From Escherichia coli (GTDB lineage: Bacteria > Pseudomonadota > Gammaproteobacteria > Enterobacterales > Enterobacteriaceae), in NCBI RefSeq assembly GCF_003334815.1, contig NZ_QOWO01000013.1: a stretch of DNA of 64,000 nt; one strand, 5' to 3'. The notes beneath the pieces were generated by a model. That model made no database searches and was not told where the DNA came from. It worked only from the letters and a program-made list of their open reading frames with translations. The position numbers were made by a program, and so were the translations under genes. The stretch's first letter is position 1. Each line of letters starts with the position of its first letter. Of the stretch, positions 2,281 through 64,000 are shown piece by piece.

Positions 2281-4362
2281 TTACGCATTCGAGTAACGTT
2301 CCGTCTCCGGCATCCAGCGTTCTATCAGGGCTTTTGCCTGTTGTGGGTAACGTTCGTGAATATGGCGTGCCAGGCGCTGAACTTCCGGGATCATCGCCTG
2401 ATCGCGCAGTAAATCCGCCACTTTAAATTCAGCATTACCCGTCTGACGCGTGCCTAACAATTCGCCAGGGCCGCGAATCTCCAGATCTTTTTGCGCAATC
2501 ACAAAACCGTCGTTACTGTCGCGCAGCACTTGCAGGCGAATTTGCGCCGTTTTAGAAAGCGGCGTTTTGTAGAGCAGCACGCAGTGAGAAGCCACCGCGC
2601 CACGACCTACGCGCCCGCGCAGCTGGTGTAACTGCGCCAGACCCAGACGCTCCGGGTTTTCGATAATCATCAGACTGGCGTTAGGCACATCAACGCCGAC
2701 TTCAATAACGGTTGTGGCAACCAGCAGGTGTAGCTCACCTTGTTTAAACGACGCCATCACCGCCTGTTTCTCGGCAGGTTTCATCCGCCCGTGTACCAGG
2801 CCAACGTTCAACTCTGGTAGCGCCAGTTTCAACTCTTCCCAGGTAGCTTCCGCCGCCTGCGCTTCCAGCAATTCCGACTCTTCAATCAACGTACAAACCC
2901 AGTATGCCTGACGACCTTCAGTTATGCAGGCGTGGTGCACGCGGTCAATGATGTCGGTACGGCGGGTATCAGGAATAGCGACCGTAGTCACTGGCGTGCG
3001 GCCTGGCGGCAGCTCATCTATCACCGAGGTATCGAGATCGGCATACGCAGTCATTGCCAGCGTGCGGGGGATCGGCGTGGCGGTCATGATCAACTGATGC
3101 GGATGGAAGCCCTGCTGCTGGCCTTTCTCCCACAATGCCAGACGCTGATGCACGCCAAAACGATGCTGTTCGTCGATAATCACCAGCGCCAGGCCGTTAA
3201 ACTGCACCTGTTCCTGGAAGATGGCGTGTGTACCGACAATCATCTGCACCTGACCGCTGGCGATGGCTTCCTGCTGTGCCAGCCGTGCTTTACCTTTCTG
3301 CTTACCGGCGAGCCAGCCCACTTCGATACCGAGCGGTGCAAACCAGTTGCGGAAGTTATTGGCGTGCTGCTCGGCGAGTAATTCGGTTGGTGCCATCAAT
3401 GCTACCTGTTTGCCGTGGGCAATCGCACGCAACGCGGCGAGGGCGGCGACCAGCGTTTTACCGGAACCTACATCGCCCTGCACCAGACGCATCATCGGCA
3501 CATCCAGCGCCATATCGCGCTCGATCTCCGCCACTACGCGTGCCTGTGCGCCCGTTGGCTTGAACGGTAAGGCGGCGAGGAGTTTATTTTTCAGCGTGTC
3601 ATTGGCGCTCAGCGGCTGGGCATGAAAACGCTGTGCTCCGGCACGTAAGGCTAACATGCTGAGGTTGTGCGCCAGCAGTTCTTCCAGAATCAGACGACGT
3701 TGCGCCGGATGCTGCCCGGTTTCCAGATCGCTAAGCTGTAGCGTCGGTGGCGGGCGGTGCAAAGTGCGCAACGCTTCCGGTAGCGTCATCATTCCTTGTG
3801 ACAGTTCCGGCGGCAGGAGTTCTTCAATGGCGCAGGTGTCGAGCAGATCCAGCGCCTGGTCGGTTAATTTACGCAGCGTGGCCTGCTTTACGCCTTCCGT
3901 TGTTGGATAAACCGGCGTGAGCGTTTCCTGTAATTCTGGCGTGCTGAGATCGCCCTGCACGCGGTATTCCGGGTGGATCATCTCCGCACCATATTTACCG
4001 CGCTTTGCTTCGCCATAAGCCAGTACACGGCGGCCCGCCGCCAGGCTATTTTTCATTGCCGCGCTGAAATTGAAAAAGCGCATGGTGAGGATGCCGGAAC
4101 CGTCGCTGATCTGGCAGGTCATCATCCGCCGACCGCCGAAGGAGATATTGCAGTTCAGCACTTCGCCTTCCACCGTGGCATAAACGCCCGGCAGTAGTTC
4201 TCCGATGGGGTAGAGATGGGTGCGATCTTCGTAGCGCAGGGGAAGGTGTAAGAGTAGATCCTGCACGGTATGCAGGTTGATTTTCGCCAGTTTGTTACTA
4301 AGTGCTGCGCCAACGCCCGTTAGGGAACTGAGTGGGACAGCATCTAACAGGCGACCTTTCAT
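2281..4362 (-). CDS. recG: ATP-dependent DNA helicase RecG
   Basis: ORF track 2281..4395; conserved N-terminus MKGRLLDAVPL begins at internal ATG 4362 (693 aa); Walker A GSGKT and DEQHRFG helicase motifs present. Confidence 0.93.
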   Translation of the reverse strand: MKGRLLDAVPLSSLTGVGAALSNKLAKINLHTVQDLLLHLPLRYEDRTHLYPIGELLPGVYATVEGEVLNCNISFGGRRMMTCQISDGSGILTMRFFNFSAAMKNSLAAGRRVLAYGEAKRGKYGAEMIHPEYRVQGDLSTPELQETLTPVYPTTEGVKQATLRKLTDQALDLLDTCAIEELLPPELSQGMMTLPEALRTLHRPPPTLQLSDLETGQHPAQRRLILEELLAHNLSMLALRAGAQRFHAQPLSANDTLKNKLLAALPFKPTGAQARVVAEIERDMALDVPMMRLVQGDVGSGKTLVAALAALRAIAHGKQVALMAPTELLAEQHANNFRNWFAPLGIEVGWLAGKQKGKARLAQQEAIASGQVQMIVGTHAIFQEQVQFNGLALVIIDEQHRFGVHQRLALWEKGQQQGFHPHQLIMTATPIPRTLAMTAYADLDTSVIDELPPGRTPVTTVAIPDTRRTDIIDRVHHACITEGRQAYWVCTLIEESELLEAQAAEATWEELKLALPELNVGLVHGRMKPAEKQAVMASFKQGELHLLVATTVIEVGVDVPNASLMIIENPERLGLAQLHQLRGRVGRGAVASHCVLLYKTPLSKTAQIRLQVLRDSNDGFVIAQKDLEIRGPGELLGTRQTGNAEFKVADLLRDQAMIPEVQRLARHIHERYPQQAKALIERWMPETERYSNA

Positions 4363-4367
4363 GGCAC

Positions 4368-5057
4368 TTACCCTGCAGCCTGCATAGTAGCCCACCAGTC
4401 GGCATCAGCTTCGATCTCGCCTTGCTGATTGACGTGGGGATAAGGCAGGCCTTTGCGTTTTGCGACTTTCGCCAGCACCGGATAGCCGCCTTCAAACAAC
4501 AGGCGTTGTTGCTCTGCTTCCGGCAACATGCTGTTTTCACGCAGGTACATGCCTGCATTTTGCCGCTGACGCTGGGCTTCGTAAAGAATGAGGGCTGAGG
4601 CAACGGAAACATTCAGCGACTGCACCATGCCGATCATCGGAATGATGATGTCCTGATCCGCCAGGGCCAATGCTTCCTGCGTGATGCCCGTTTTCTCCTG
4701 TCCCATCAAAATGCAGGTCGGGCGAGTGTAATCAATTTCGCGGAAATCGACAGCGTTATCAGAAAGATGGGTTGCCAGAATCTGCATGCCCTGGCCTTTG
4801 AGATGAGCGACGGCATCGCCAATGGTGCGGTGTGTTTTCACCTGTACCCAGCTGTTACTACCCGCCGCTGCCGAAGCCATGGTGCGCATGCGGCTACCAG
4901 GCCAGACGGCGTGAACTTCATGTACGCCAACGGCATCTGCGGTACGAATAATCGCAGAAACGTTATGAGGTTTGTGGACCTGCTCCATGCAGACGGTCAG
5001 ATCAGGCTGCCGCCTGGCGAGCATTTCGCAGATGCGTGCATAACGTGTTGGGTTCAT
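4368..5057 (-). CDS. trmH: tRNA (Gm18) 2'-O-methyltransferase TrmH (SpoU)
   Basis: ORF track 229 aa; SPOUT methyltransferase; sits between spoT and recG. Confidence 0.9.
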   Translation of the reverse strand: MNPTRYARICEMLARRQPDLTVCMEQVHKPHNVSAIIRTADAVGVHEVHAVWPGSRMRTMASAAAGSNSWVQVKTHRTIGDAVAHLKGQGMQILATHLSDNAVDFREIDYTRPTCILMGQEKTGITQEALALADQDIIIPMIGMVQSLNVSVASALILYEAQRQRQNAGMYLRENSMLPEAEQQRLLFEGGYPVLAKVAKRKGLPYPHVNQQGEIEADADWWATMQAAG

Positions 5058-5063
5058 AAAACA

Positions 5064-7172
5064 TTAATTTCGGTTTCGGGTGACTTTAATCACGTCTGGC
5101 ATCACGCGGATTTTGCGCATGATATTCGCCAGATGCACACGGTCACGAGCGGTCAGACGAATAAAGGCGCTGTAGACGCGACCATCTTTCTCTTCCGTAT
5201 TCAAACTTTGAATATTCGAAGTCGTGGTGTTAATTGCCGCCGTCAGGTTTGCCAGCGCACCCTGATGATTGAACATCTCCACCTTGATTTCGGTGATGAA
5301 CTCCTGCGCCGTCTCTTTATCCCATTCCACAGCCATAAACTTCTCTGGCTCTTTCTGGTAGCCACGGATATTACGGCAGGATTCATGGTGGATCACCAGA
5401 CCTTTACCGGGGCTGACGTGGGCGATAATCGGGTCGCCAGGAATAGGGCGGCAGCATTTCGCAAAGGTGATCAGCACGCCATCGGCACCTTTAATGGGCA
5501 GATGTCCGTGGCTTTGGGTTGCCGGTGGAATGGAGGCGTCCCCATGTTGCAGATTTTTCGCGACCACCACGCTCATTGCGTTACCAAGTCCGATTTCTGC
5601 CAGCAGATCGTCAAGCGTTGCCAGCTTCATGCGATCCAGCTCGCGCTGAATATTTTCCTGCGGGATTTCATTCAGCTTACGGCTACCACCCAAAGCATGG
5701 TTGAGCAGACGACGGCCCAGGCTTACAGAATCATCACGCTTGAGGTTTTTCAGCAACTGACGAATTTTGGCGCGCGCTTTCGAGCTAACGACAAAGTTCA
5801 GCCAAGCGGCATTCGGGCGAGCGCCCGGAGCGGTAATGATTTCAACGGTTTGACCGCTGGTAAGCGGCTGCGACAGCGGGTAAGGCTGGCGGTCAACGCG
5901 TGCGCCCACGCAGGCATGACCGATATCGGTATGCACTGCATAAGCGAAGTCGACGGGCGTTGCACCGGCAGGCAGCTCGACAATGCGCCCTTCCGGTGTG
6001 AAAACGTAAATCTCATCCGGGAAGAGATCGGATTTAACGCTCTCGATAAATTCAAACGAACTACCGGCGCTCTGTTGCAGCTCCAGCAGGCTTTGCATCC
6101 AGCGCTGGGCGCGGATTTGTGCGGTAGTACTGGTTTCGCCGTGCTCTTTATAAGCCCAGTGCGCGGCAACACCCATCTCCGCCATCTGGTCCATATCTTC
6201 GGTACGGATCTGGACCTCAACCGGCACACCGTGCGGGCCGATCATCGAGGTGTGCAAAGACTGATAGCCGTTCGCTTTTGGAATGGCGATATAGTCTTTC
6301 ACGCGGCCCGGACGCGGCTTGTACAGGCTGTGCATCTGGCCCAGCACGCGATAACAGGTGTCAGAATCATTGACGATCACGCGGAAAGCGTAGATGTCCA
6401 TGATCGAGTGAAAACGCTGCTCTTTGAGCACCATTTTGCAGTAAATCGAATAAAGATGCTTCTCGCGACCACTGACGCGGCACGGTATTCCCGCTTCCTG
6501 CAAACGCCCTTCGATTTCAGAAAGAATCTTCTGGATCATCTCTTTACGGTTGCCGCGCGCGGCTTTCACCACTTCTTTGATTACGCGATAACGGTTGGGA
6601 TACAGCGCCTCAAAACCCAGCTCTTCGAGTTCGGTTTTAATGTGGTGGATACCTAAACGGTGCGCCAGCGGGCTATAAATTTCGAGAGTTTCACGGGCGA
6701 TGCGGCGACGTTTGTCCGGGCGAAGTGAGCCCAGCGTGCGCATGTTGTGGGTACGGTCGGCAAGTTTGATGAGGATGACGCGGATATCCTGCACCATCGC
6801 CATAATCATCTTGCGAAAGTTTTCGGCCTGCGCCTCTTTCTTATCGCGGAACTTGAGTTTATCAAGTTTCGACACCCCCTCTACCAGCTCGGCGACGCTT
6901 TTACCAAAAAGCTGTTCCATATCCTGGTAGGTGGCGGGAGTATCTTCAATCACGTCATGCAGCAGCGCCGCCATCAGCGTTTCATAGTCGAGTTTCATCT
7001 CGGCCAGAATGCAGGCAACCGCTACCGGGTGCGTGATATAGGGTTCACCGCTTGAACGTGTTTGCCCCTCGTGAGCATCACGTGCAACGAGATACGCCTG
7101 CCGCAGACGCTTGATTTGGTCTTCCGGCAGGTAGGTTTGAATCAGTTGATTCAGGCTTTCAAACAGATACAA
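5064..7172 (-). CDS. spoT: bifunctional (p)ppGpp synthetase/hydrolase SpoT
   Basis: ORF track 702 aa; HD hydrolase motif (HDVIEDT) plus RelA/SpoT synthetase region; directly downstream of rpoZ. Confidence 0.95.
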   Translation of the reverse strand: MYLFESLNQLIQTYLPEDQIKRLRQAYLVARDAHEGQTRSSGEPYITHPVAVACILAEMKLDYETLMAALLHDVIEDTPATYQDMEQLFGKSVAELVEGVSKLDKLKFRDKKEAQAENFRKMIMAMVQDIRVILIKLADRTHNMRTLGSLRPDKRRRIARETLEIYSPLAHRLGIHHIKTELEELGFEALYPNRYRVIKEVVKAARGNRKEMIQKILSEIEGRLQEAGIPCRVSGREKHLYSIYCKMVLKEQRFHSIMDIYAFRVIVNDSDTCYRVLGQMHSLYKPRPGRVKDYIAIPKANGYQSLHTSMIGPHGVPVEVQIRTEDMDQMAEMGVAAHWAYKEHGETSTTAQIRAQRWMQSLLELQQSAGSSFEFIESVKSDLFPDEIYVFTPEGRIVELPAGATPVDFAYAVHTDIGHACVGARVDRQPYPLSQPLTSGQTVEIITAPGARPNAAWLNFVVSSKARAKIRQLLKNLKRDDSVSLGRRLLNHALGGSRKLNEIPQENIQRELDRMKLATLDDLLAEIGLGNAMSVVVAKNLQHGDASIPPATQSHGHLPIKGADGVLITFAKCCRPIPGDPIIAHVSPGKGLVIHHESCRNIRGYQKEPEKFMAVEWDKETAQEFITEIKVEMFNHQGALANLTAAINTTTSNIQSLNTEEKDGRVYSAFIRLTARDRVHLANIMRKIRVMPDVIKVTRNRN

Positions 7173-7190
7173 GGGCGACCCGCTTTGTGA

Positions 7191-7466
7191 TTAACGACGA
7201 CCTTCAGCAATAGCGGTAACGGCTTGTAATTCAGCGGCTTCCTGCTCTTGCTGTTCCTGGCGTTCGCGAACGTCGAGGATCTGGTTGTTGATCAGACCTT
7301 CTTCGATTTCGCGCAGCGCGATTACAGTGGTTTTATCGTTTTCTTCCGGTACCAGCGGATCCTTTCCGCCTACCTGCATCTGACGAGCGCGACGCGCGGC
7401 GACCAGTACCAGGTCAAAACGGTTACCAATTTTCTCTACAGCGTCCTGAACAGTTACGCGTGCCAT
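7191..7466 (-). CDS. rpoZ: RNA polymerase omega subunit
   Basis: ORF track 91 aa [31 protein letters not shown]... Confidence 0.95.
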
Positions 7467-7520
7467 ACTTAAAAAGCTCCACAGGTGAAGAAATGACTGG
7501 GCATGATACTGAAATCAGGT

Positions 7521-10698
<3,178 letters not shown>

Positions 10699-54001: not shown

Positions 54002-55149
54002 TATTGCATTGCTTTATAAGCGGTTACCGCCTCGGATACAACCTCGCTGTTGGCATCAAGACCGGAAATCTGTGCCAGCGCCGCCTGCGGACCTTTGTCA
54101 GCGATCAGTGCTGCCAGTTCCTGAGCCTGCGGATCATCTTCACTGCGGAAGTGCATTGCAGCGGCAATACCTTCAATCAGGTTTTTATGTGGCAGACCAT
54201 ATTCCAGCGTACCGAGCAGTGGCTTGATCAGACGGTCGCCAGCACTCAGTTTACGCAGTGGCTGACGGCCTACGCGCTCTACATCATCTTTCAGATACGG
54301 GTTCTCAAAACGGCCGAGAATTTTCTGGATGTACGCCGCATGCTTGTCAGCGTCAAAGCCGTAGCGCTTGATCAATACTGCACCACTTTCTTCCATCGCA
54401 CCTTTTACCACCGCGCGGATTTTCTCGTCGAGAATCGCGTCACGAATGGTCTGATGACCGGCCAGTTTTCCGAGGTACGCGGTTATAGCATGACCCGTGT
54501 TCAGGGTGAAGAGTTTACGTTCGACAAATGCCATCAGGTTGTCGGTTAACTCCATGCCTGGGATGTTCGGCAGTGCGCCTTTGAACTGCGTTTTATCGAC
54601 AATCCATTCGCTGAAGGTTTCTACCGTCACTTCCAGCGGATCGTTAGTTGCCGAAGCCGAAGGCGGTACGATGCGGTCAACGGCGGAATCGACAAAGCCA
54701 ACGTGTTCTTCTACCCACGCTTTGGCGTCTTCCGGCAGGGCGTTCATCACATGGCCTTTCAGCTGCGTGGTACCGCGTACCATGTTTTCACAGGCGATGA
54801 TGTTCAGCGGGGATTCATTACCTTGTTCTTTACGTTTCACCAGCCCTTTGGCGATTGCCGGAGCAATACGTTCCAGCACAACCGGGCCAACGGCGGTAGT
54901 GACTAAATCAACCTGAGCAATCAGATCAACGACATCATCACCAATGCTGCTGACAGCATTGACGCCGGAAACGGTATCTACCTGCTCGGTTTCACCAACC
55001 ACATGTACCTGATAGCTATGACGGGCATTCAGGGCATCAAGTACCACCTGATTGACATCGGCAAACGTCAGTTGGATACCCGCGTCTGCCAGCAGTTTAC
55101 CGATAAAGCCACGACCGATATTACCTGCGCCAAAATGTAATGCTTTCAT
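54001..55149 (-). CDS. mtlD: mannitol-1-phosphate 5-dehydrogenase
   Basis: ORF track 54001..55467; conserved Rossmann start [17 protein letters not shown] at ATG 55149 (382 aa); the upstream extension in the track runs through REP repeats. Confidence 0.94.
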
Positions 55150-55180
55150 AGTATTAACCTTCATCAATGTTTTTACCCGA

Positions 55181-55375
55181 GAGGGCTGGGGTGAGGCTTT
55201 TCCCTCACCCAAACCCTCTCCGTGAGGAGAGGGGCAGCGCCGGATGCGGCGTAAGCGCCTTATCCGGCCTACAAGAACGTGCAAATTCAACAAATTGTGA
55301 TGCATCCTGTAGGCCTGATAAGCGTAGCGCATCAGGCAATTAACCCCACCTTCTCCATGTGGAGAGGGTGGGATT
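55181..55375. repeat. BIME-like cluster: CCCTC/GAGGG hairpins flanking two inverted REP elements
   Basis: hairpin about 55201-55234, REP 55241-55273, inverted REP 55305-55337, hairpin about 55346-55372; between mtlA stop and mtlD start. Confidence 0.7.
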
Positions 55376-55378
55376 GGA

Positions 55379-57292
55379 TTACTTACGACCTGCCAGCAGT
55401 TCCAGCACTTCATCCACGCTGGTGGTGTGTGCCAGACGCTCGATGACGGACTCATCATCCAGTGCATTGGTCAGGCTGGTGATAACCTGAATGTGCTCGT
55501 TGTTACGGGCAGCAATACCAATCACCAGACGGGCAATGTCATCTTCTTCTTCACCGAAGCGCACGCCTTCCGGGTACTGGCAGAACACGACGCCCGTTTT
55601 CAGTACGCGATCTTTCGCTTCAACCGTACCGTGTGGCACCGCGATAGACTCACCCAGATAAGTCGGGGTCAGTTTTTCACGATCCAGCATCGCCTGAACG
55701 TATTCCGGCTCAACGTAACCGCCTTTCACCAGCTGCTCGCCAGCAAAACGAATCGCTTCTTCTTTGGTTGCCGCTTTGCGACCGAGGAAGATGTTCTCCG
55801 CGCCTAGCTTGAACAGGTTAGCACTGGAATCGTCAAAGCTGTCTTTCAGGCTGTCTTTTACTTTCTCTTCGTTTGCCGTGTGGCGTTGGGCAGCAACCAG
55901 ACGTTCGGTCAGGCTGGTGTACAGGCCGCTGTCGAGGAAGTTGGTCAGCGAAATATGCTGTGCCTGCGGAACCTGGCGCATAGCGCGTTCGGTCAGGTCA
56001 CGGTGAGTGATGACGAGGTCCACATCTGGCGGCAGGTTGTTGATCGCGCTGTTAGTAACAGAAATCTGCGACAGACCTGCATCCTGAATTTTCTTACGCA
56101 GAACGCCTGCGCCCATCGCACTGGAACCCATACCGGCGTCACAGGCAACGATGATTTTACGTACGTGGCTCAGGTCGTTAGTCACATCGCCAGCAGACAG
56201 CGGAGATGCGCCTTTAGACTCAGCTTTCATGTCCTGCATACGACGAGTTGCTGCTTCAATATCATCTTCTTCTTTCACTTTGCTGGTTTTCAGCAAAATA
56301 GCAGAGACAACGAAGGAGACAGCCATCGCCGCACACACACCCGCGATGTTAGCGAAGTAAGCACCTTTTGGTGTCATCGCCAGTACAGCAAGGATAGAAC
56401 CCGGAGATGCCGGAGAAACCAGACCACCGCCCAGGATAGTCAGCGTGAACACGCCAGTCATACCGCCGAGGATGACTGCGAGGATCAGACGCGGATTCAT
56501 CAGCACATACGGGAAGTAGATTTCGTGGATACCCCCCAGGAAGTGGATGATTGCCGCACCGCCCGCAGACTGTTTAGCGCTACCACGACCAAAGAACATG
56601 TACGCCAGCAGCACGCCCATACCTGGACCTGGGTTAGCTTCAATCAGGAAGAAGATTGATTTACCCAGTTCATGGGACTGCTGAATACCCAGCGGCGAGA
56701 AGATACCGTGGTTAATGGCGTTGTTGAGGAACAGGATTTTCGCCGGTTCAACAAAGATAGACGCCAGCGGCAGCATGTCATGGACAACCATGAAGTTAAC
56801 GCCCGCAGCCAGCATTTTGGACAGGGCTTCAACAATCGGGCCAATGCCGAGGAATGCCAGAATAGCGAGGATCATCCCGATGATGCCTGCGGAGAAGTTA
56901 TTCACCAGCATCTCAAAACCGGATTTGATCTTACCGTCTACCCAGCGGTCGAAGTGCTTAATGCACCAGCCGCCCAGCGGACCTGCAATCATAGAACCGA
57001 GGAACATCGGCATGTCTGCGCCGACGATAACGCCCATGGTGGTGATGGCACCGACTACGCCGCCACGTTCGCCGCCTACCAGCTTACCACCGGTATAACC
57101 GATCAGCAGCGGCAGGAGATAAGTGATCATCGGCCCGACCAGCTTCGCCAGCGTCTCGTTCGGTAACCACCCTGTTGGAATAAATAACGCGGTGATGATA
57201 CCCCACGCGATAAACGCGCCGATATTTGGCATCACCATGTTGCTGAGGAAACGACCAAAGCTTTGCACTTTGATCTTAATATCGGATGACAT
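55379..57292 (-). CDS. mtlA: PTS mannitol-specific EIICBA
   Basis: ORF track 637 aa [27 protein letters not shown]... Confidence 0.95.
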
Positions 57293-59330: not shown

Positions 59331-59892
59331 GGGGGAGGGGGGAGATTATGGAACTTTGCTCCTTGTAAGGACTAATTATTTTTGCATATTACTTCATTAG
59401 CTGCGATGATTTTTCTTTAATATTCATTATGTTAATAAGTTCTGGATGAGTGTGCTCTCATTGGATTTTTTATCCGTCTTGTTCTGCCGCAGGATGAGAC
59501 TATACATCGTCGAGATCGCAATGATGATATGAGTTGTTCCTCCTGCGACGGCTCTAATCAAAAAAGAGCAGGAGTGCTTTTCCATCTATTGCGATGATGG
59601 CTTTATTATCTGAAGGATGACAGTCACATTTAAAAAATATTTAATCTATAGATCACAATGTAGGGTCATGGAATATATGTATACAACTATTTTCTTCTTC
59701 ACTTTTAATTATCGTATTCATTATAAAACTAAGTTAAAAAAACTCCTGGAGAGTGAGTTATTAATATATTTTTAAATAAAATTAAGTTATCATTCATCGA
59801 TGCACTTTATAGAATCATCAATGGCCATAATAGTACTATTAACTCTCAATTTTATATTTTTATCATCACTACAAATATTAACTGAATTTATA

Positions 59893-60228
59893 TCAATGAT
59901 TTTTTTTATTCTTATCTTTTATTTTATTTACTGTTTCAATGCAATCAGCGGCAAGTTGGAGTGGATTTAGATTTTTCAGATATGGTCTTATGATCTTTCC
60001 CTTACTTAATAAATAGCATGTATAGGATTCGGAAAGTCCAGCATCTATTTTGTACCTCATTATATTAGATAAGGATGTGAGAAATTCCTTGTTATCATTC
60101 GCAGCCATATATGCCAGTCCGAGTTCAGCCTCTGCGGCCTTACAGGCAAAATAGCTTAGTGAACACGCTTTTCGTCCCTCTTTAGTACTGGCTGATATTA
60201 GTGCCCATAATATTGCTTTGTCTGCCAA
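59893..60228 (-). CDS. hypothetical 111-aa ORF at the distal end of the rhs accessory array (possible orphan immunity gene)
   Basis: ORF track only; track start is a TTG and the first ATG is internal; AT-rich; no recognisable motif. Confidence 0.35.
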   Translation of the reverse strand: MADKAILWALISASTKEGRKACSLSYFACKAAEAELGLAYMAANDNKEFLTSLSNIMRYKIDAGLSESYTCYLLSKGKIIRPYLKNLNPLQLAADCIETVNKIKDKNKKNH

Positions 60229-60316
60229 ATCTAACTCTCTCTGAAATTGTCTTGCAGTAACTGCACTCGCAGAAATAGAGAAAAAAATACAATTGTTAAT
60301 AACCTTGCCATATTTT

Positions 60317-60610
60317 TTAGTCCGTAACTGTTAATGTGCTATCTGGCTCTGAAAATATTAACTCATTTAATTTTTGCATGTCATTAGATAAACCAGTTAT
60401 ACAACCCTCGGAACAGAATCGAGGTCCTAAAGACGGACCAAAAGCGTTTAAACAACTATGTATTGAAAATCCATTGCGATTATAAGTTCCTGTATTAACT
60501 GACGGTACTAATCGTATGCCGTCAGGTTTTCTATTGCTTGCTCCCGGGTCATTAACATTCCAACTCCATAGGCCTTGAGGTATTGGCCATCTATTTATAA
60601 ATGTGTACAA
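60317..60610 (-). pseudogene. probable remnant of an orphan Rhs C-terminal toxin tip
   Basis: ORF track 97 aa starting at TTG; lies directly downstream of the degenerate rhs core-end fragment but in a different frame. Confidence 0.35.
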
Positions 60611-60744
60611 CGGGGATTATTTTTACATTGCATATTATTACCAGAAGCGACTGGAATACTAAGCACATCATAAAAATTATCATCACATGGTATATCTGAA
60701 ACACACGAAAGCATACCTAAAGTTATGCTGTATAAACAGGTGGC

Positions 60745-60925
60745 TAATCCCAAGGGGATCGATTCCAGAAATCGGGTTCAACGGATACTGATAAAAATTC
60801 CACCTACCTTCCAGCCCAATCGGAGCCTGAGTGTTATACCGCCCCTGCTGCGGTTAATGTTACCGATAATAGTTATAGTACAGCCCTGATTCATCATCAT
60901 ACTACTGCTGCGGCAGTCTGATGAA
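60745..60925 (-). pseudogene. degenerate Rhs core C-terminal fragment with in-frame stops
   Basis: Reverse translation gives [54 protein letters not shown], a decayed copy of the rhs core end ([20 protein letters not shown]...[24 protein letters not shown]). Confidence 0.6.
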
Positions 60926-60934
60926 CTATTGCTT

Positions 60935-61396
60935 TTACGGATTCTCCTTATTCTTCCTTCTATCCATTCGCTTTAGCTTTTTGAGCTCTTGAAGTTTGCT
61001 CTTTGCATCAATATTACCGTTATTTACAGCGAATTCCATCCAATAAATAGCTCTATTCAAATTATAATATTCTGATAATGTTGGATTTGTATCTGATAAA
61101 AAGACCCCATAATTAAACTGCGCTGTAACATTCCCCTGAGATGCTGATCTTTCCAAGAATCGCAATTGTTTGTAAATGTTATTTTTAGTAAAGCAGTAAT
61201 ATTGATATAGTCGAAATGATGCCTCTGAATCACCATGTTGTGATTTATACTTCAGTTTCATCAACTTTTCTTCACTTAAATCATAGGTCATTGCTGTAGA
61301 CCCCATCATACTTTCGTTTTGTTTTATTTTCACATCAGCACCATGCAATTGACAAATAAAAGAGAAATAAAAAAATAGTAACAAGCATGCTTTCAT
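60935..61396 (-). CDS. yibG: Sel1-repeat protein YibG with N-terminal signal-peptide-like segment (putative immunity protein for the yibJ toxin tip)
   Basis: ORF track 153 aa; 12 nt downstream of yibJ stop. Confidence 0.82.
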   Translation of the reverse strand: MKACLLLFFYFSFICQLHGADVKIKQNESMMGSTAMTYDLSEEKLMKLKYKSQHGDSEASFRLYQYYCFTKNNIYKQLRFLERSASQGNVTAQFNYGVFLSDTNPTLSEYYNLNRAIYWMEFAVNNGNIDAKSKLQELKKLKRMDRRKNKENP

Positions 61397-61407
61397 ACAT
61401 CTACAAC

Positions 61408-62352
61408 CTATCTTATATCACTGGGTTTTTCTGGCGTACCTTGCATATTAGAAATGGGGTGCCCAGATGGCCCATATGTTATCCAATTACCAAGGTCTTT
61501 TGTTGTTATAGCCATTAGATCCTTATTTGAATTAAGGTTCGTTGGTGCTGTTAGCACTGTATCCATTTTTAACTTACCATTAGTTCCTCGCCCCCACCAC
61601 GTCCATAGCGTGTCAGGTCCTATTACATTTGTATGTAACTCTTTAGCTAATTGGCTAGCAAATGAATTTTGTCCTTTACCTGTATTACAAGAAAATAACC
61701 AAACTGTCATCCCATCTTTATAATTCCCATCAAATTTAATTAGATATGCTAGATCTTTAGCTGTCATGATACTGCGCGTTGCGGATTCAATAGATGTGGG
61801 GGTACCATGCCCCCCGATTGTGAAAACGCCTGGGATATTAATCTCATCAGCTACAGAATGGATAAGATCACTTTCGGGGTATAAATTTATATCAACCAAA
61901 CCTTGCGGATCTACATTTATGACCGGATTCAACGGATACTGATAAAAATTCCATCCCCCCTTCAGTCCAATCGGATCCTGAGTGATATACCGCCCCAGCA
62001 GCGGGTCATAATAGCGGTGGCGGTTGTAATACAGGCCGGACTCCTCATCATACTGCTGACCCGGCAGGCGAATGAGCTGCTGCAGATGATGCGGGTTCTC
62101 ATCACTCAGCAGGTTGCCCCATTCATCATATTCTGCGCACCACGCTGTTGCCCCTTCCGTGCTGATGAGCGCCAGCGGCAGGCCGCGATGGTCGCAGTGG
62201 TACAGGTGGATTTTTCGCGCCGGCGTGTACACCGGGTCCATCTGGTTTTGCATCTGCTCCACCGTCAGGCCGCACGATGCCAGCCAGCGGCGGCTTTCCT
62301 CACTCACCCGGTCAGCCAGGATTTCACTTTCCAGCCGGTCGAGCATCTGCAC
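61408..62352 (-). CDS. yibJ: orphan Rhs C-terminal module YibJ: rhs core 3' fragment fused to an alternative C-terminal tip
   Basis: ORF track 314 aa (GTG 62352 or ATG 62346); first ~150 aa nearly identical to the rhsA core end, diverging after DPQGL. Confidence 0.8.
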
Positions 62353-62393: not shown

Positions 62394-63236
62394 CTATGAA
62401 CGCTTCAGCTTATCAATAGCGGAAGTTATAATTTCATTGTCATCAAACTTGTACAACATAGTATCTAAAACAGGAAGTAGCGTTTTATCACCTAATTCAC
62501 CCGCAGCTTCAATGATATCATCATAAACAGTATTTTTTTTTAACTCATCGCATAAAACAGATAAAACCCTTTTATCTTTTCTGTAGGAAAGTCCGATTAT
62601 TGCTTCAATACGGACTTCCTCATTTTTATCCTGAAGCATCTCCACAAAACAATCCCTAATATCACTATTATCATATTTATTGATATTTATTGCAAATGCG
62701 GCCCAGTTTCTGACATCTCCATTTGGATCTTTTAACAGATTAATCAATAGTGGAATTGTTGCTTTATCATTGATAACAGAAATAGCAAATGCTGTAGCAC
62801 GTCTGACATTAGTCGATTTATCAAAAGCAGTAATTTGAGATTGTTCTACTATTTTAGGTGAATAAATTGGGTTTTTCTTGCATCGCTGAGCCGTTGACTC
62901 GATTGCCGTAGCTCGAACGCAAGCGCTCTTATCATTCAATGCCATATTGTTCAAAATATTAAAAACATTATCTTCGCATTTTTTGCAAATTTTTATTTGC
63001 CCGAGTATAAATGCTCCGATATCTCTACGGATATAATTTTTATCAGAGCAGAACTCAATTGCCAATCTAACAGCGTCTTGCCCACCTCTTAACTGTAATA
63101 CTCTGGCAGATGAAATCCTTTTCAAGGAATTGTGATCATCAAGTAAGCGAAATAATTCATCATCATTTAGTTTCTTACATTGATTATATAAACCATACTC
63201 TTTACTTGCCTTTCTTTTCTGGTATGTATTTGACAT
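62394..63236 (-). CDS. yibA: HEAT-repeat protein YibA (RhsA-associated immunity protein)
   Basis: ORF track 62394..63251 (GTG); ATG 63236 preceded by GGAGG gives 280 aa; 20 nt downstream of rhsA stop. Confidence 0.82.
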   Translation of the reverse strand: MSNTYQKRKASKEYGLYNQCKKLNDDELFRLLDDHNSLKRISSARVLQLRGGQDAVRLAIEFCSDKNYIRRDIGAFILGQIKICKKCEDNVFNILNNMALNDKSACVRATAIESTAQRCKKNPIYSPKIVEQSQITAFDKSTNVRRATAFAISVINDKATIPLLINLLKDPNGDVRNWAAFAININKYDNSDIRDCFVEMLQDKNEEVRIEAIIGLSYRKDKRVLSVLCDELKKNTVYDDIIEAAGELGDKTLLPVLDTMLYKFDDNEIITSAIDKLKRS

Positions 63237-63256
63237 TGCAGGAACCTCCACAAGGG

Positions 63257-64000
63257 CTATCTTTTTTTATCGTTTGACTGTCTGGAGTGACGACAATTCC
63301 AGGCTTTCTGTGTGCTTTTTGCATCTTTAGCACTAATATCACCACAATCAATTAGTTCCTGAAGTACGTCACATCTGTCGGGTTTTTTCCCATCACTCCA
63401 GAATCTGTCATTTATTATGTCATTGACACGATCAGTTATCCCTGTGTCTGCAACATTTCCACGAGAAGCTATCATTGTTATATCTAATGCTAGTCCCGGA
63501 TTATTCAATATTAGAGAGTCAAATATTCTTTGTGATGCTGTATCGTTCCACCATTTTGTCAATGCTTTTGCAGCATTATCATCTGCTTGCTGCTGTGCAG
63601 GGCTTTTGGGCCATGGAATTGGCAAGGGGAATGGTCTAGGAAAAACTTCTAACCCCAGAGGATCTGTATTCGTAACTGGATTCAACGGATACTGATAAAA
63701 ATTCCATCCCCCCTTCAGCCCAATCGGATCCTGAGTGATATACCGCCCCTGCAGCGGGTCATAATAGCGGTGGCGGTTGTAATACAGGCCGGACTCCTCA
63801 TCATACTGCTGCCCCGGCAGGCGGATAAGCTGCTGCAGCTGATGCGGGTTCTCTTCATTCAGCAGGTTGCCCCATTCATCGTATTCTGCGCACCATTCTG
63901 TTGTCCCTTCCTTGCTGATAAGGGCCAGCGGCAGGCCGCGATGGTCGCAGTGGTACAGGTGGATTTTTCGCGCCGGCGTGTACACCGGGTCCATCTGGTT
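63257..64000 (-). CDS. rhsA: RhsA, 3' end only (core C-terminus, DPLGL junction and C-terminal tip); gene continues beyond window end
   Basis: Open reverse-strand frame from the window end to TAG at 63257-63259; ...[44 protein letters not shown]... Confidence 0.88.

Follow-up and report, generated by a model that had tools for sequence, protein, structure and literature searches.

YibG of Escherichia coli as a predicted exported Sel1-like-repeat immunity protein paired with an Rhs-borne, clan CD peptidase-like toxin

Genes at the rhsA locus

The window, that is, the whole 64,000-nt stretch of E. coli contig NZ_QOWO01000013.1 (RefSeq assembly GCF_003334815.1), ends in the rhsA region, which lies in reverse orientation: mtlD, mtlA, yibI and yibH come first, and beyond yibH the minus strand carries an orphan module in decay, then yibG, yibJ (an orphan tip), yibA and, last, the main rhsA with its 3′ end. 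The features are as follows.

59790..60901, minus strand: second decayed orphan module, downstream of yibG
about 59790-60311, minus strand: frameshifted Imm57 gene of the second module; its first ORF (60231-60311) begins MARLLTIVFFSLFL, which is signal-like
60317-60610, minus strand: 97-aa Tlde1/YkuD-like tip of the second module (Tlde1 E 0.008, YkuD E 0.038, both weak), with an HSC...GC motif
about 60683-60901, minus strand: Rhs core remnant of the second module, with an internal stop
60935..61396, minus strand: yibG coding sequence, 153 aa plus stop, predicted from its homologues to encode an exported Sel1-like-repeat immunity protein
60947..61279, minus strand: yibG codons 40-150, Sel1-like helix-turn-helix repeats, about three in number, carrying the family motif G[DN]xxAxFRLYxYY
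61280..61339, minus strand: yibG codons 20-39, ADVKIKQNESMMGSTAMTYD, charged disordered linker (pLDDT < 50 at residues 17-33), variable in length among homologues
61340..61396, minus strand: yibG codons 1-19, MKACLLLFFYFSFICQLHG, predicted Sec-type signal sequence, possibly an uncleaved signal anchor, judged by hydrophobicity and by the retention of this property in about 15 lineages
61397..61407, minus strand: spacer between the yibJ stop and the yibG start, GTTGTAGATGT, 11 nt
61411..61896, minus strand: C-terminal toxin domain of yibJ (RefSeq 'DUF8616'), 162 aa, clan CD (caspase-fold) cysteine-peptidase-like
61687-61689, minus strand: codon of Cys70 of the toxin domain
61804-61809, minus strand: codons of His30-Gly31 of the toxin domain
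61897..62352, minus strand: Rhs core remnant of yibJ, ending in the DPxGL motif (...NVDPQGL) ahead of the toxin
62394..63251, minus strand: yibA, HEAT-repeat protein that serves as immunity partner to the tip of the resident main RhsA
63257..63700, minus strand: C-terminal tip of the main RhsA of this strain, Ntox34 toxin domain (Pfam 9.1e-44)

The yibJ ORF (61408..62352, minus strand, TAG at 61408-61410) is an orphan tip without an N-terminus, called 'DUF8616 domain-containing protein, missing N-terminus' in RefSeq, and its core remnant matches Pfam RHS (4.7e-15), NCBIfam RHS_core over positions 1111-1261 and Rhs_assc_core. The ORF at 60935..61396 bears the RefSeq name yibG, 'SEL1-like repeat protein'. 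The variable tip and immunity modules have a G+C content of 35-39% vs 57% in the Rhs core remnant; low-G+C tips beside a G+C-richer core are the usual signature of exchangeable rhs tips. The yibJ-tip/yibG stretch at 60935-61890 is 99.9% identical to that of K-12 derivatives and 100% identical to that of several other isolates, and the module of yibJ tip and yibG occurs in 3508 of 5426 complete E. coli genomes (65%). Given this frequency, and given that the frame is preserved, N-terminal segment included, in homologues with as little as about 25% identity, yibG is, on the grounds of conservation, a real gene and not a chance ORF.

Pairing of toxin and yibG-like genes across lineages

The ATG of yibG begins 12 nt past the last base of the yibJ stop codon, as the earlier note had observed, and the small gene stands straight after a tip that follows DPxGL, which is the gene order of Rhs toxin/immunity pairs. 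The same note took this for the canonical immunity position, and the comparison bears this out, with the same tip and a YibG-type partner found together in Enterobacter, in E. coli O157:H7, in metagenomes and in distant lineages. A toxin search with an 8-sequence alignment yielded 4 loci from genome contigs. In Enterobacter, a full-length 1405-aa Rhs protein ends in a tip 79% identical to the toxin domain of YibJ (YibJ-CT), with a YibG homologue (56%) beginning 11 nt further on, and two metagenomic loci repeat this layout. E. coli O157:H7 carries a YibJ-type tip on its main 1409-aa RhsA, followed by a 153-aa yibG, and the PCR-verified structure of EDL933 agrees with this arrangement (PMC7216683). 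Among these close loci (Enterobacter, the two metagenomic ones and O157:H7), the tips share 77-81% identity and the YibG homologues 49-67%; the 11-nt spacing between the toxin and the YibG homologue recurs in loci L002, L008 and L009 as well as in O157:H7.

A HMMER scan returned 562 tip relatives, which lay mostly directly after the DPxGL of Rhs/YD proteins. Neighbours were fetched for distant tips (35-50% identity) from Rheinheimera, Sulfurospirillum, Variovorax and six metagenomic lineages, and the next gene encoded a small YibG-aligning protein with G[DN]xxAxFRLYxYY at all loci except L025, where the contig ends at the toxin. The pair is still together where the toxin has fallen to 35-50% identity and the partner to about 25%, and the two co-diverge over more than ten lineages in three or more bacterial classes. 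Because the distant tips keep a YibG-like gene next to them, the pair is old and co-inherited, and as far as comparative genomics tells, YibG is the immunity partner of the YibJ tip.

Sel1-like-repeat (SLR) proteins serve many functions, which leaves some room for YibG to be an unrelated exported adaptor or chaperone that stands beside an rhs fragment by chance. Such a coincidence is hardly credible next to a pair that is conserved across phyla with co-divergence of both members (77-81% with 49-67% in the close loci, 35-50% with about 25% in the distant ones), and next to a gene as small and as tightly spaced behind the toxin stop codon as yibG. In Salmonella, moreover, the YibG homologue occurs alone, with no toxin, in an immunity island beside a yibA homologue, and a toxin-less immunity gene in such an island is typical of orphan immunity genes.

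Some relatives of the tip sit in other architectures. One metagenomic locus (L016) encodes a 2449-aa toxin protein (2501-9850) that bears the clan CD tip together with its own N-terminal signal-like sequence and with TIG, beta-propeller and CarboxypepD_reg domains, and that has no PAAR or DUF6531 domain; this architecture suggests a delivery route other than a type VI secretion system (T6SS) in that lineage. Giant proteins of 3000-6800 aa (P0089, P0093, P0095, P0097, P0100 and P0110) repeat the toxin core (query residues ~22-100) in tandem, up to five times, and in this resemble the caspase-like domain arrays reported by Zhang et al. 2012.

Sel1-like body and N-terminus of YibG

YibG (153 aa) starts MKACLLLFFYFSFICQLHGADVKIKQNES / MKACLLLFFYFSFICQLHGADVKIK. 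As a single sequence it gave no more than weak TPR/Sel1 matches in Pfam and NCBIfam (in Pfam, TPR_27 8e-4; Sel1 at E 1.2, below Pfam's Sel1 threshold), and a 9-sequence family profile matched solved Sel1 proteins at 2e-11 to 1e-8. The AlphaFold2 model has a body of paired helices at residues 40-150 with pLDDT > 90, whose fold matches are SLR/TPR structures only, the top ones being all SLR and including PA5086, PA5087 and PA5088. By family profile and predicted fold, YibG is thus an SLR protein with about three repeats, in agreement with the earlier note, which had described everything behind the N-terminus as Sel1-like. Ahead of the body, the model places a low-confidence helix at residues 3-15, detached from it, and disorder at residues 17-33 (pLDDT < 50).

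The N-terminus is laid out as MK, 15 hydrophobic residues and LHG. The charged n-region consists of a single Lys, and the hydrophobic h-region follows directly (MK, then ACLLLFFYFSFICQL); residues 3-20 are uncharged, and the maximum Kyte–Doolittle mean over 10 residues is 2.5. The c-region is atypical for signal peptidase I (SPase I), with Leu at −3, His at −2 and Gly at −1 (LHG/AD), and its cleavage score was −1.0 vs a median of 12 for known sites in a home-made, poorly discriminating SPase I weight matrix. This matrix, built from 30 signal peptides, failed to tell true signals apart from ORFs of the window, gave just 0.7 to the canonical AMA/K site of one homologue (L026), and was used solely to call the YibG c-region atypical. 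The likeness to a Sec signal peptide that had been noticed at the outset holds for the n- and h-regions and is doubtful for the region of cleavage. A lipoprotein signal was rejected, there being no lipobox and Cys15, in the context S-F-I-C, being replaced by Gly or Asp in close alleles; a Tat signal was likewise rejected, with no twin-Arg and zero Arg in residues 1-20.

Export was judged by the conservation of this N-terminal design over about 16 lineages, which do not amount to a census; a profile search for further immunity homologues added few new lineages. A hydrophobic N-terminus after Lys or Arg is present in about 15 immunity lineages, and the sequence itself is not conserved. Examples with their sites are MKIKILLLLLFPLICQSQG/ED, MRFVIVFIMLIVSFYTFGG/K, MWLKFLQFSLFVFFVYQVNG/ED, MKLFFLIILVTTMTGFDA/R and MRLNRYFYIVALSSSFLLIGGAMA/K, together with MKKHQMLLTCLLVSSFNIMQA/D, whose start was missed by the gene caller. 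In the metagenomic locus L017 an NIMQA/D site appeared once the mis-called start was corrected, good cleavage motifs exist in several homologues (AMA/K in L026, SQG/E, VNG/E), and the homologue L019 has a clear lipobox, LAGC, in its N-terminus MKFIYFLLPLIILAGC. As the design is kept while the sequence differs between lineages, the N-terminal segment must be translated and under selection for its hydrophobicity. Taken together, this comparison supports a Sec-type export signal on YibG, so that the protein is probably exported and may be cleaved, and the view that YibG looks exported was sustained in all lineages found except Variovorax.

A translated and selected N-terminal segment argues against the old 132-aa annotation of EDL933 (z5018), which corresponds to a start at Val22 (PMC7216683). 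If translation began downstream, at the Val22 GTG, Met30 or Met31, YibG would be a cytoplasmic protein counteracting a cytoplasm-acting toxin. Besides z5018, two database entries (P0022 and P0041) that begin at an internal Met, the weak Shine–Dalgarno sequence before the yibG ATG of the window (TAGG) and the signal-less Variovorax homologue are compatible with such a start. We nevertheless regard it as highly improbable: homologues with no more than about 25% identity still have the N-terminal frame and its hydrophobicity, which could not persist without translation and selection, the distance of 11 nt from the toxin stop is kept, Shine–Dalgarno-like sequences precede the signal-including ATG in most related loci and are better than that of the window in other loci, and the current RefSeq annotation gives 153 aa in O157:H7 too (L029).

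With the signal-including start preferred, the question arises of whether the segment is removed. YibG could be exported and stay uncleaved as an inner-membrane anchor (N-in, C-out) with a periplasmic SLR domain, which differs from a soluble periplasmic protein only in the tether. The atypical c-region with Leu at −3 and its low matrix score fit this, as do the two or three homologues whose segments are long enough for membrane anchors and resemble true transmembrane helices (about 22 residues in L023, about 20 in L015 and P0240), and a Cell-PLoc prediction puts YibG in the inner membrane (PMC4964107). Set against this are the hydrophobic core of YibG, which has just about 15 residues, the 13-residue length of the modelled helix, and the homologues with AMA/K, SQG/E and VNG/E sites and with a lipobox, so that an uncleaved anchor seems unlikely, with an appreciable chance all the same. 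Whether the segment is cleaved or anchored, the position of the positive charge on its N-terminal side would leave the SLR domain facing the periplasm.

The Variovorax homologue (L021, L022 and P0239) showed no hydrophobic N-terminus and no alternative start upstream, and was the sole such lineage found. Since this partner has no signal, a periplasmic location is probably not universal in the YibG family. In Variovorax CP063166.1, the immunity ORF (~7605-7955) lies behind a classical VgrG-DUF2169-PAAR-Rhs toxin that also ends in the clan CD tip; in this lineage either the compartment in which the toxin acts or the way in which immunity works would be different.

Clan CD assignment of the YibJ toxin domain

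YibJ-CT contains the motifs VFTIGGHG and VWLFSC, each behind a hydrophobic strand, which is the clan CD signature of a His-Gly and an (Ala/Ser)-Cys dyad in that order. Its fold is likewise the caspase-like alpha/beta one. Among 33 diverse tip relatives, His30, Gly31 and Cys70 are invariant and Ser69 is present in all but one (32/33). By structure it was matched best to Tce1, a T6SS effector, and to the cysteine protease domains found in MARTX and TcdA; in the Foldseek search, legumain, GPI transamidase and the RTX CPD came first, at a weak E of ~1e-2. Members of the tip family gave sub-threshold Pfam matches to clan CD families only (C80, CHAT, C13, C25 and DUF4347), with 1.5e-3 for C80 and 2.2e-2 for DUF4347. 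As a single sequence, YibJ-CT had no match in Pfam even at E 10 and nothing in NCBIfam, and the toxin profile had no match among PDB sequences even at E 10. Motifs and predicted fold together point to a putative clan CD cysteine peptidase with a His30/Cys70 dyad. An alpha/beta-hydrolase reading of 'HG ... SC' was dropped: there is no Sm-x-Nu-x-Sm elbow, and the fold matches are all clan CD.

Two further properties of the domain bear on where it could act. The catalytic fold begins directly after DPxGL, with no entry, transmembrane or extra translocation domain, and in 28 of the 33 tip-family domains the catalytic Cys is the only Cys.

Proposed mode of action and site of action

The explanation that we prefer, at a probability of roughly 60%, is that YibG is an exported immunity protein that blocks an Rhs-borne clan CD peptidase in the periplasm. 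The toxin would be a 162-residue clan CD (caspase/C80-like) peptidase, normally carried on a full-length Rhs tip such as that of the main RhsA of O157:H7. The Rhs cage would carry the peptidase, autocleavage at DPxGL would free it, and the T6SS (or another route in some lineages) would deliver it into the periplasm of a neighbour, where its His/Cys dyad could cut or transpeptidate an envelope substrate. YibG, made with an N-terminal Sec signal, would reach the periplasmic side of the inner membrane, either soluble after cleavage near Gly19/Ala20 or tethered through the uncleaved segment, and its approximately three Sel1-like repeats would bind and block the incoming toxin. The assumption of T6SS delivery rests on the VgrG-DUF2169-PAAR-Rhs context in Variovorax and on DUF6531 N-termini elsewhere. 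Since the toxin copy in the window is a displaced orphan without an N-terminus, this locus may mainly supply immunity and a spare tip for recombination.

Since YibG is very probably exported, the toxin is most likely envelope-acting and not cytoplasmic, and we infer that its site of action is the envelope or periplasm. Periplasmic action is favoured by the approximately 15 lineages with exported immunity proteins, by the toxin having no entry domain, by the near-absence of non-catalytic Cys and by the neighbouring Tlde1/YkuD-like module. Tlde1/YkuD-like tips are known to act in the periplasm. The envelope-acting partner toxin that the earlier note had deduced from an exported immunity protein fits these properties.

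On the other hand, the target could be cytoplasmic, with exported YibG merely intercepting the toxin on its way through the periplasm, in which case the location of YibG would be uninformative on the target. To our knowledge, the surroundings in which characterised clan CD peptidases work are cytosol-like, and this counts for a cytoplasmic target. The signal-less immunity protein beside a typical VgrG-PAAR-Rhs toxin in Variovorax and the toxicity of the effector Tce2 in yeast (PMC13323088) count for it as well. A catalytic fold straight after DPxGL without a transmembrane or entry domain speaks against it, and the scarcity of non-catalytic Cys and the export of the immunity protein in about 15 lineages fit periplasmic action. 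All cytoplasm-acting T6SS/Rhs toxins characterised so far that we know of have cytoplasmic immunity proteins, which also counts against a cytoplasmic target, and overall we consider it rather improbable.

Several points weigh against the preferred explanation of an exported YibG blocking a periplasmic peptidase, namely the atypical c-region of YibG, the signal-less Variovorax partner, the weak Foldseek E (~1e-2) and the position of YibJ-CT outside Pfam families; in addition, Tce1 and Tce2, the solved proteins most closely related to it, lack an immunity gene and were not toxic in E. coli (PMC13323088). In the literature on YibG, z5018 and DUF8616, no experimental localisation, toxicity or protection work on the pair was found.

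A bolder and tentative reading, to which we give a little less than an even chance, is that DUF8616 constitutes the first caspase-fold (clan CD) antibacterial toxin family working in the periplasm, checked by exported three-repeat Sel1 proteins; as part of this reading, what the toxin cleaves or transpeptidates would be a protein of the envelope or a peptide linked to peptidoglycan.

As a separate observation, the two successive orphan modules of the window (yibJ with yibG, and the Tlde1-like tip with Imm57) both look periplasm-directed.

Comparison with known systems

Among known SLR immunity proteins, PA5086, PA5087 and PA5088 (Tli5b-type), the immunity proteins of the Pseudomonas aeruginosa H3-T6SS effector PldB, are likewise encoded directly downstream of their effector, and their structures (5jkp, 5jjo and 6lch) are among the sequence and fold matches of YibG. 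They have been described as direct inhibitors of PldB (PMC7216683). The likeness in sequence does not exceed that expected of SLR proteins in general (E 1e-3 or weaker, with a fold E of ~0.05-0.5), and whereas PA5086-88 have about 260 aa and more repeats and face a phospholipase, YibG has 153 aa and about three repeats and faces a predicted clan CD peptidase. Another SLR protein, Sel1E, experimentally neutralises the upstream-encoded Klebsiella pneumoniae T6SS toxin VgrG4, and its localisation predictions were inconclusive (PMC7108748). It is longer than YibG, and its partner is a C-terminal DUF2345 domain of VgrG that induces reactive oxygen species.

On the toxin side, Tce1 and Tce2 of the P. 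aeruginosa H3-T6SS (PDB 9qpe) are putative cysteine proteases with no adjacent immunity gene, which were not toxic in E. coli, Tce2 being toxic in yeast, and were proposed to be anti-eukaryotic (PMC13323088). They differ from YibJ-CT in being Hcp-lumen cargo instead of Rhs tips, and share 15% sequence identity with it. The C80 domains of MARTX (RtxA) and of Clostridioides difficile TcdA/TcdB are internal autoprocessing domains activated by InsP6 in the eukaryotic cytosol; YibJ-CT, in contrast, is shorter (162 aa) and terminal, has an immunity partner and falls below the Pfam C80 threshold. The 'Tox-Caspase' class of polymorphic toxins (Zhang et al. 2012, PMC3482391) resembles caspases in fold, has the H and C residues and is likewise the C-terminal-most domain of gammaproteobacterial Rhs, T6SS and other polymorphic toxins. 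Compared by description, the partners given for Tox-Caspase in that survey are Imm36 and Imm57, with neither SLR immunity nor periplasmic action mentioned (PMC3482391).

Tlde1/Tldi1, Tae/Tai and Tle/Tli share the logic by which a periplasmic target is recognised from the signal peptide of the immunity protein, and such a signal peptide is a routine criterion for periplasmic targets in effector surveys (PMC10469887). Their toxins are peptidoglycan hydrolases, L,D-transpeptidase-fold enzymes and lipases, whereas YibJ-CT is predicted to belong to clan CD. Among clan CD interbacterial toxins, the searches made turned up none whose known target lies in the envelope.

Novelty and significance

The pairing of a periplasm-acting effector with a signal-bearing immunity protein is already known, and so are SLR proteins in the role of immunity proteins; an earlier in-silico EHEC paper had also already named YibG "RhsAI". 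New for this pair are the conserved export signal, the assignment of the tip to clan CD and the breadth of the pairing. The 132-aa EDL933 model, by starting at Val22 (GTG), removes the signal sequence and is an annotation trap; as it hides the signal, it is probably the reason why the earlier in-silico study left export unmentioned.

In E. coli K-12, yibG is still counted among the uncharacterised "y-ome" genes (PMC11551758). It now gains a concrete and cheaply testable predicted function, and the toxin gains a predicted enzymology (His30/Cys70, clan CD) and a predicted compartment, in a module that is present in about two thirds of complete E. coli genomes and forms the active RhsA tip of O157:H7. 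As few Rhs tips are predicted to be extracytoplasmic and no envelope-target clan CD toxin was found in the searches, the substrate could expose a new vulnerability of the envelope. If DUF8616 were indeed the first periplasmic family of this fold, clan CD effectors that seemed harmless when made in the cytoplasm of E. coli may owe this simply to the compartment chosen for the test.

Other features of the window and related loci

The part of the main RhsA at 63257-63994 (minus strand) carries the resident Ntox34 tip, with YibA as its partner; NCBIfam names YibA a 'putative lyase' (PRK09687, 3e-140), which looks like a misnomer for an immunity protein. At the Salmonella locus L005, an Ntox34 fragment and a YibA homologue lie just upstream of the orphan YibG homologue. 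The yibJ/yibG locus appears to be a rearrangement hotspot: the region of yibJ, yibG and the orphan module is interrupted by IS1, IS3, IS5 or IS903 in several E. coli strains, and one fusion ORF (P0236) joins Rhs core sequence to the middle of YibG. In the gap between mtlD and mtlA (~55140-55380), ORF translations contain low-complexity runs and resemble REP/BIME-type intergenic repeats.
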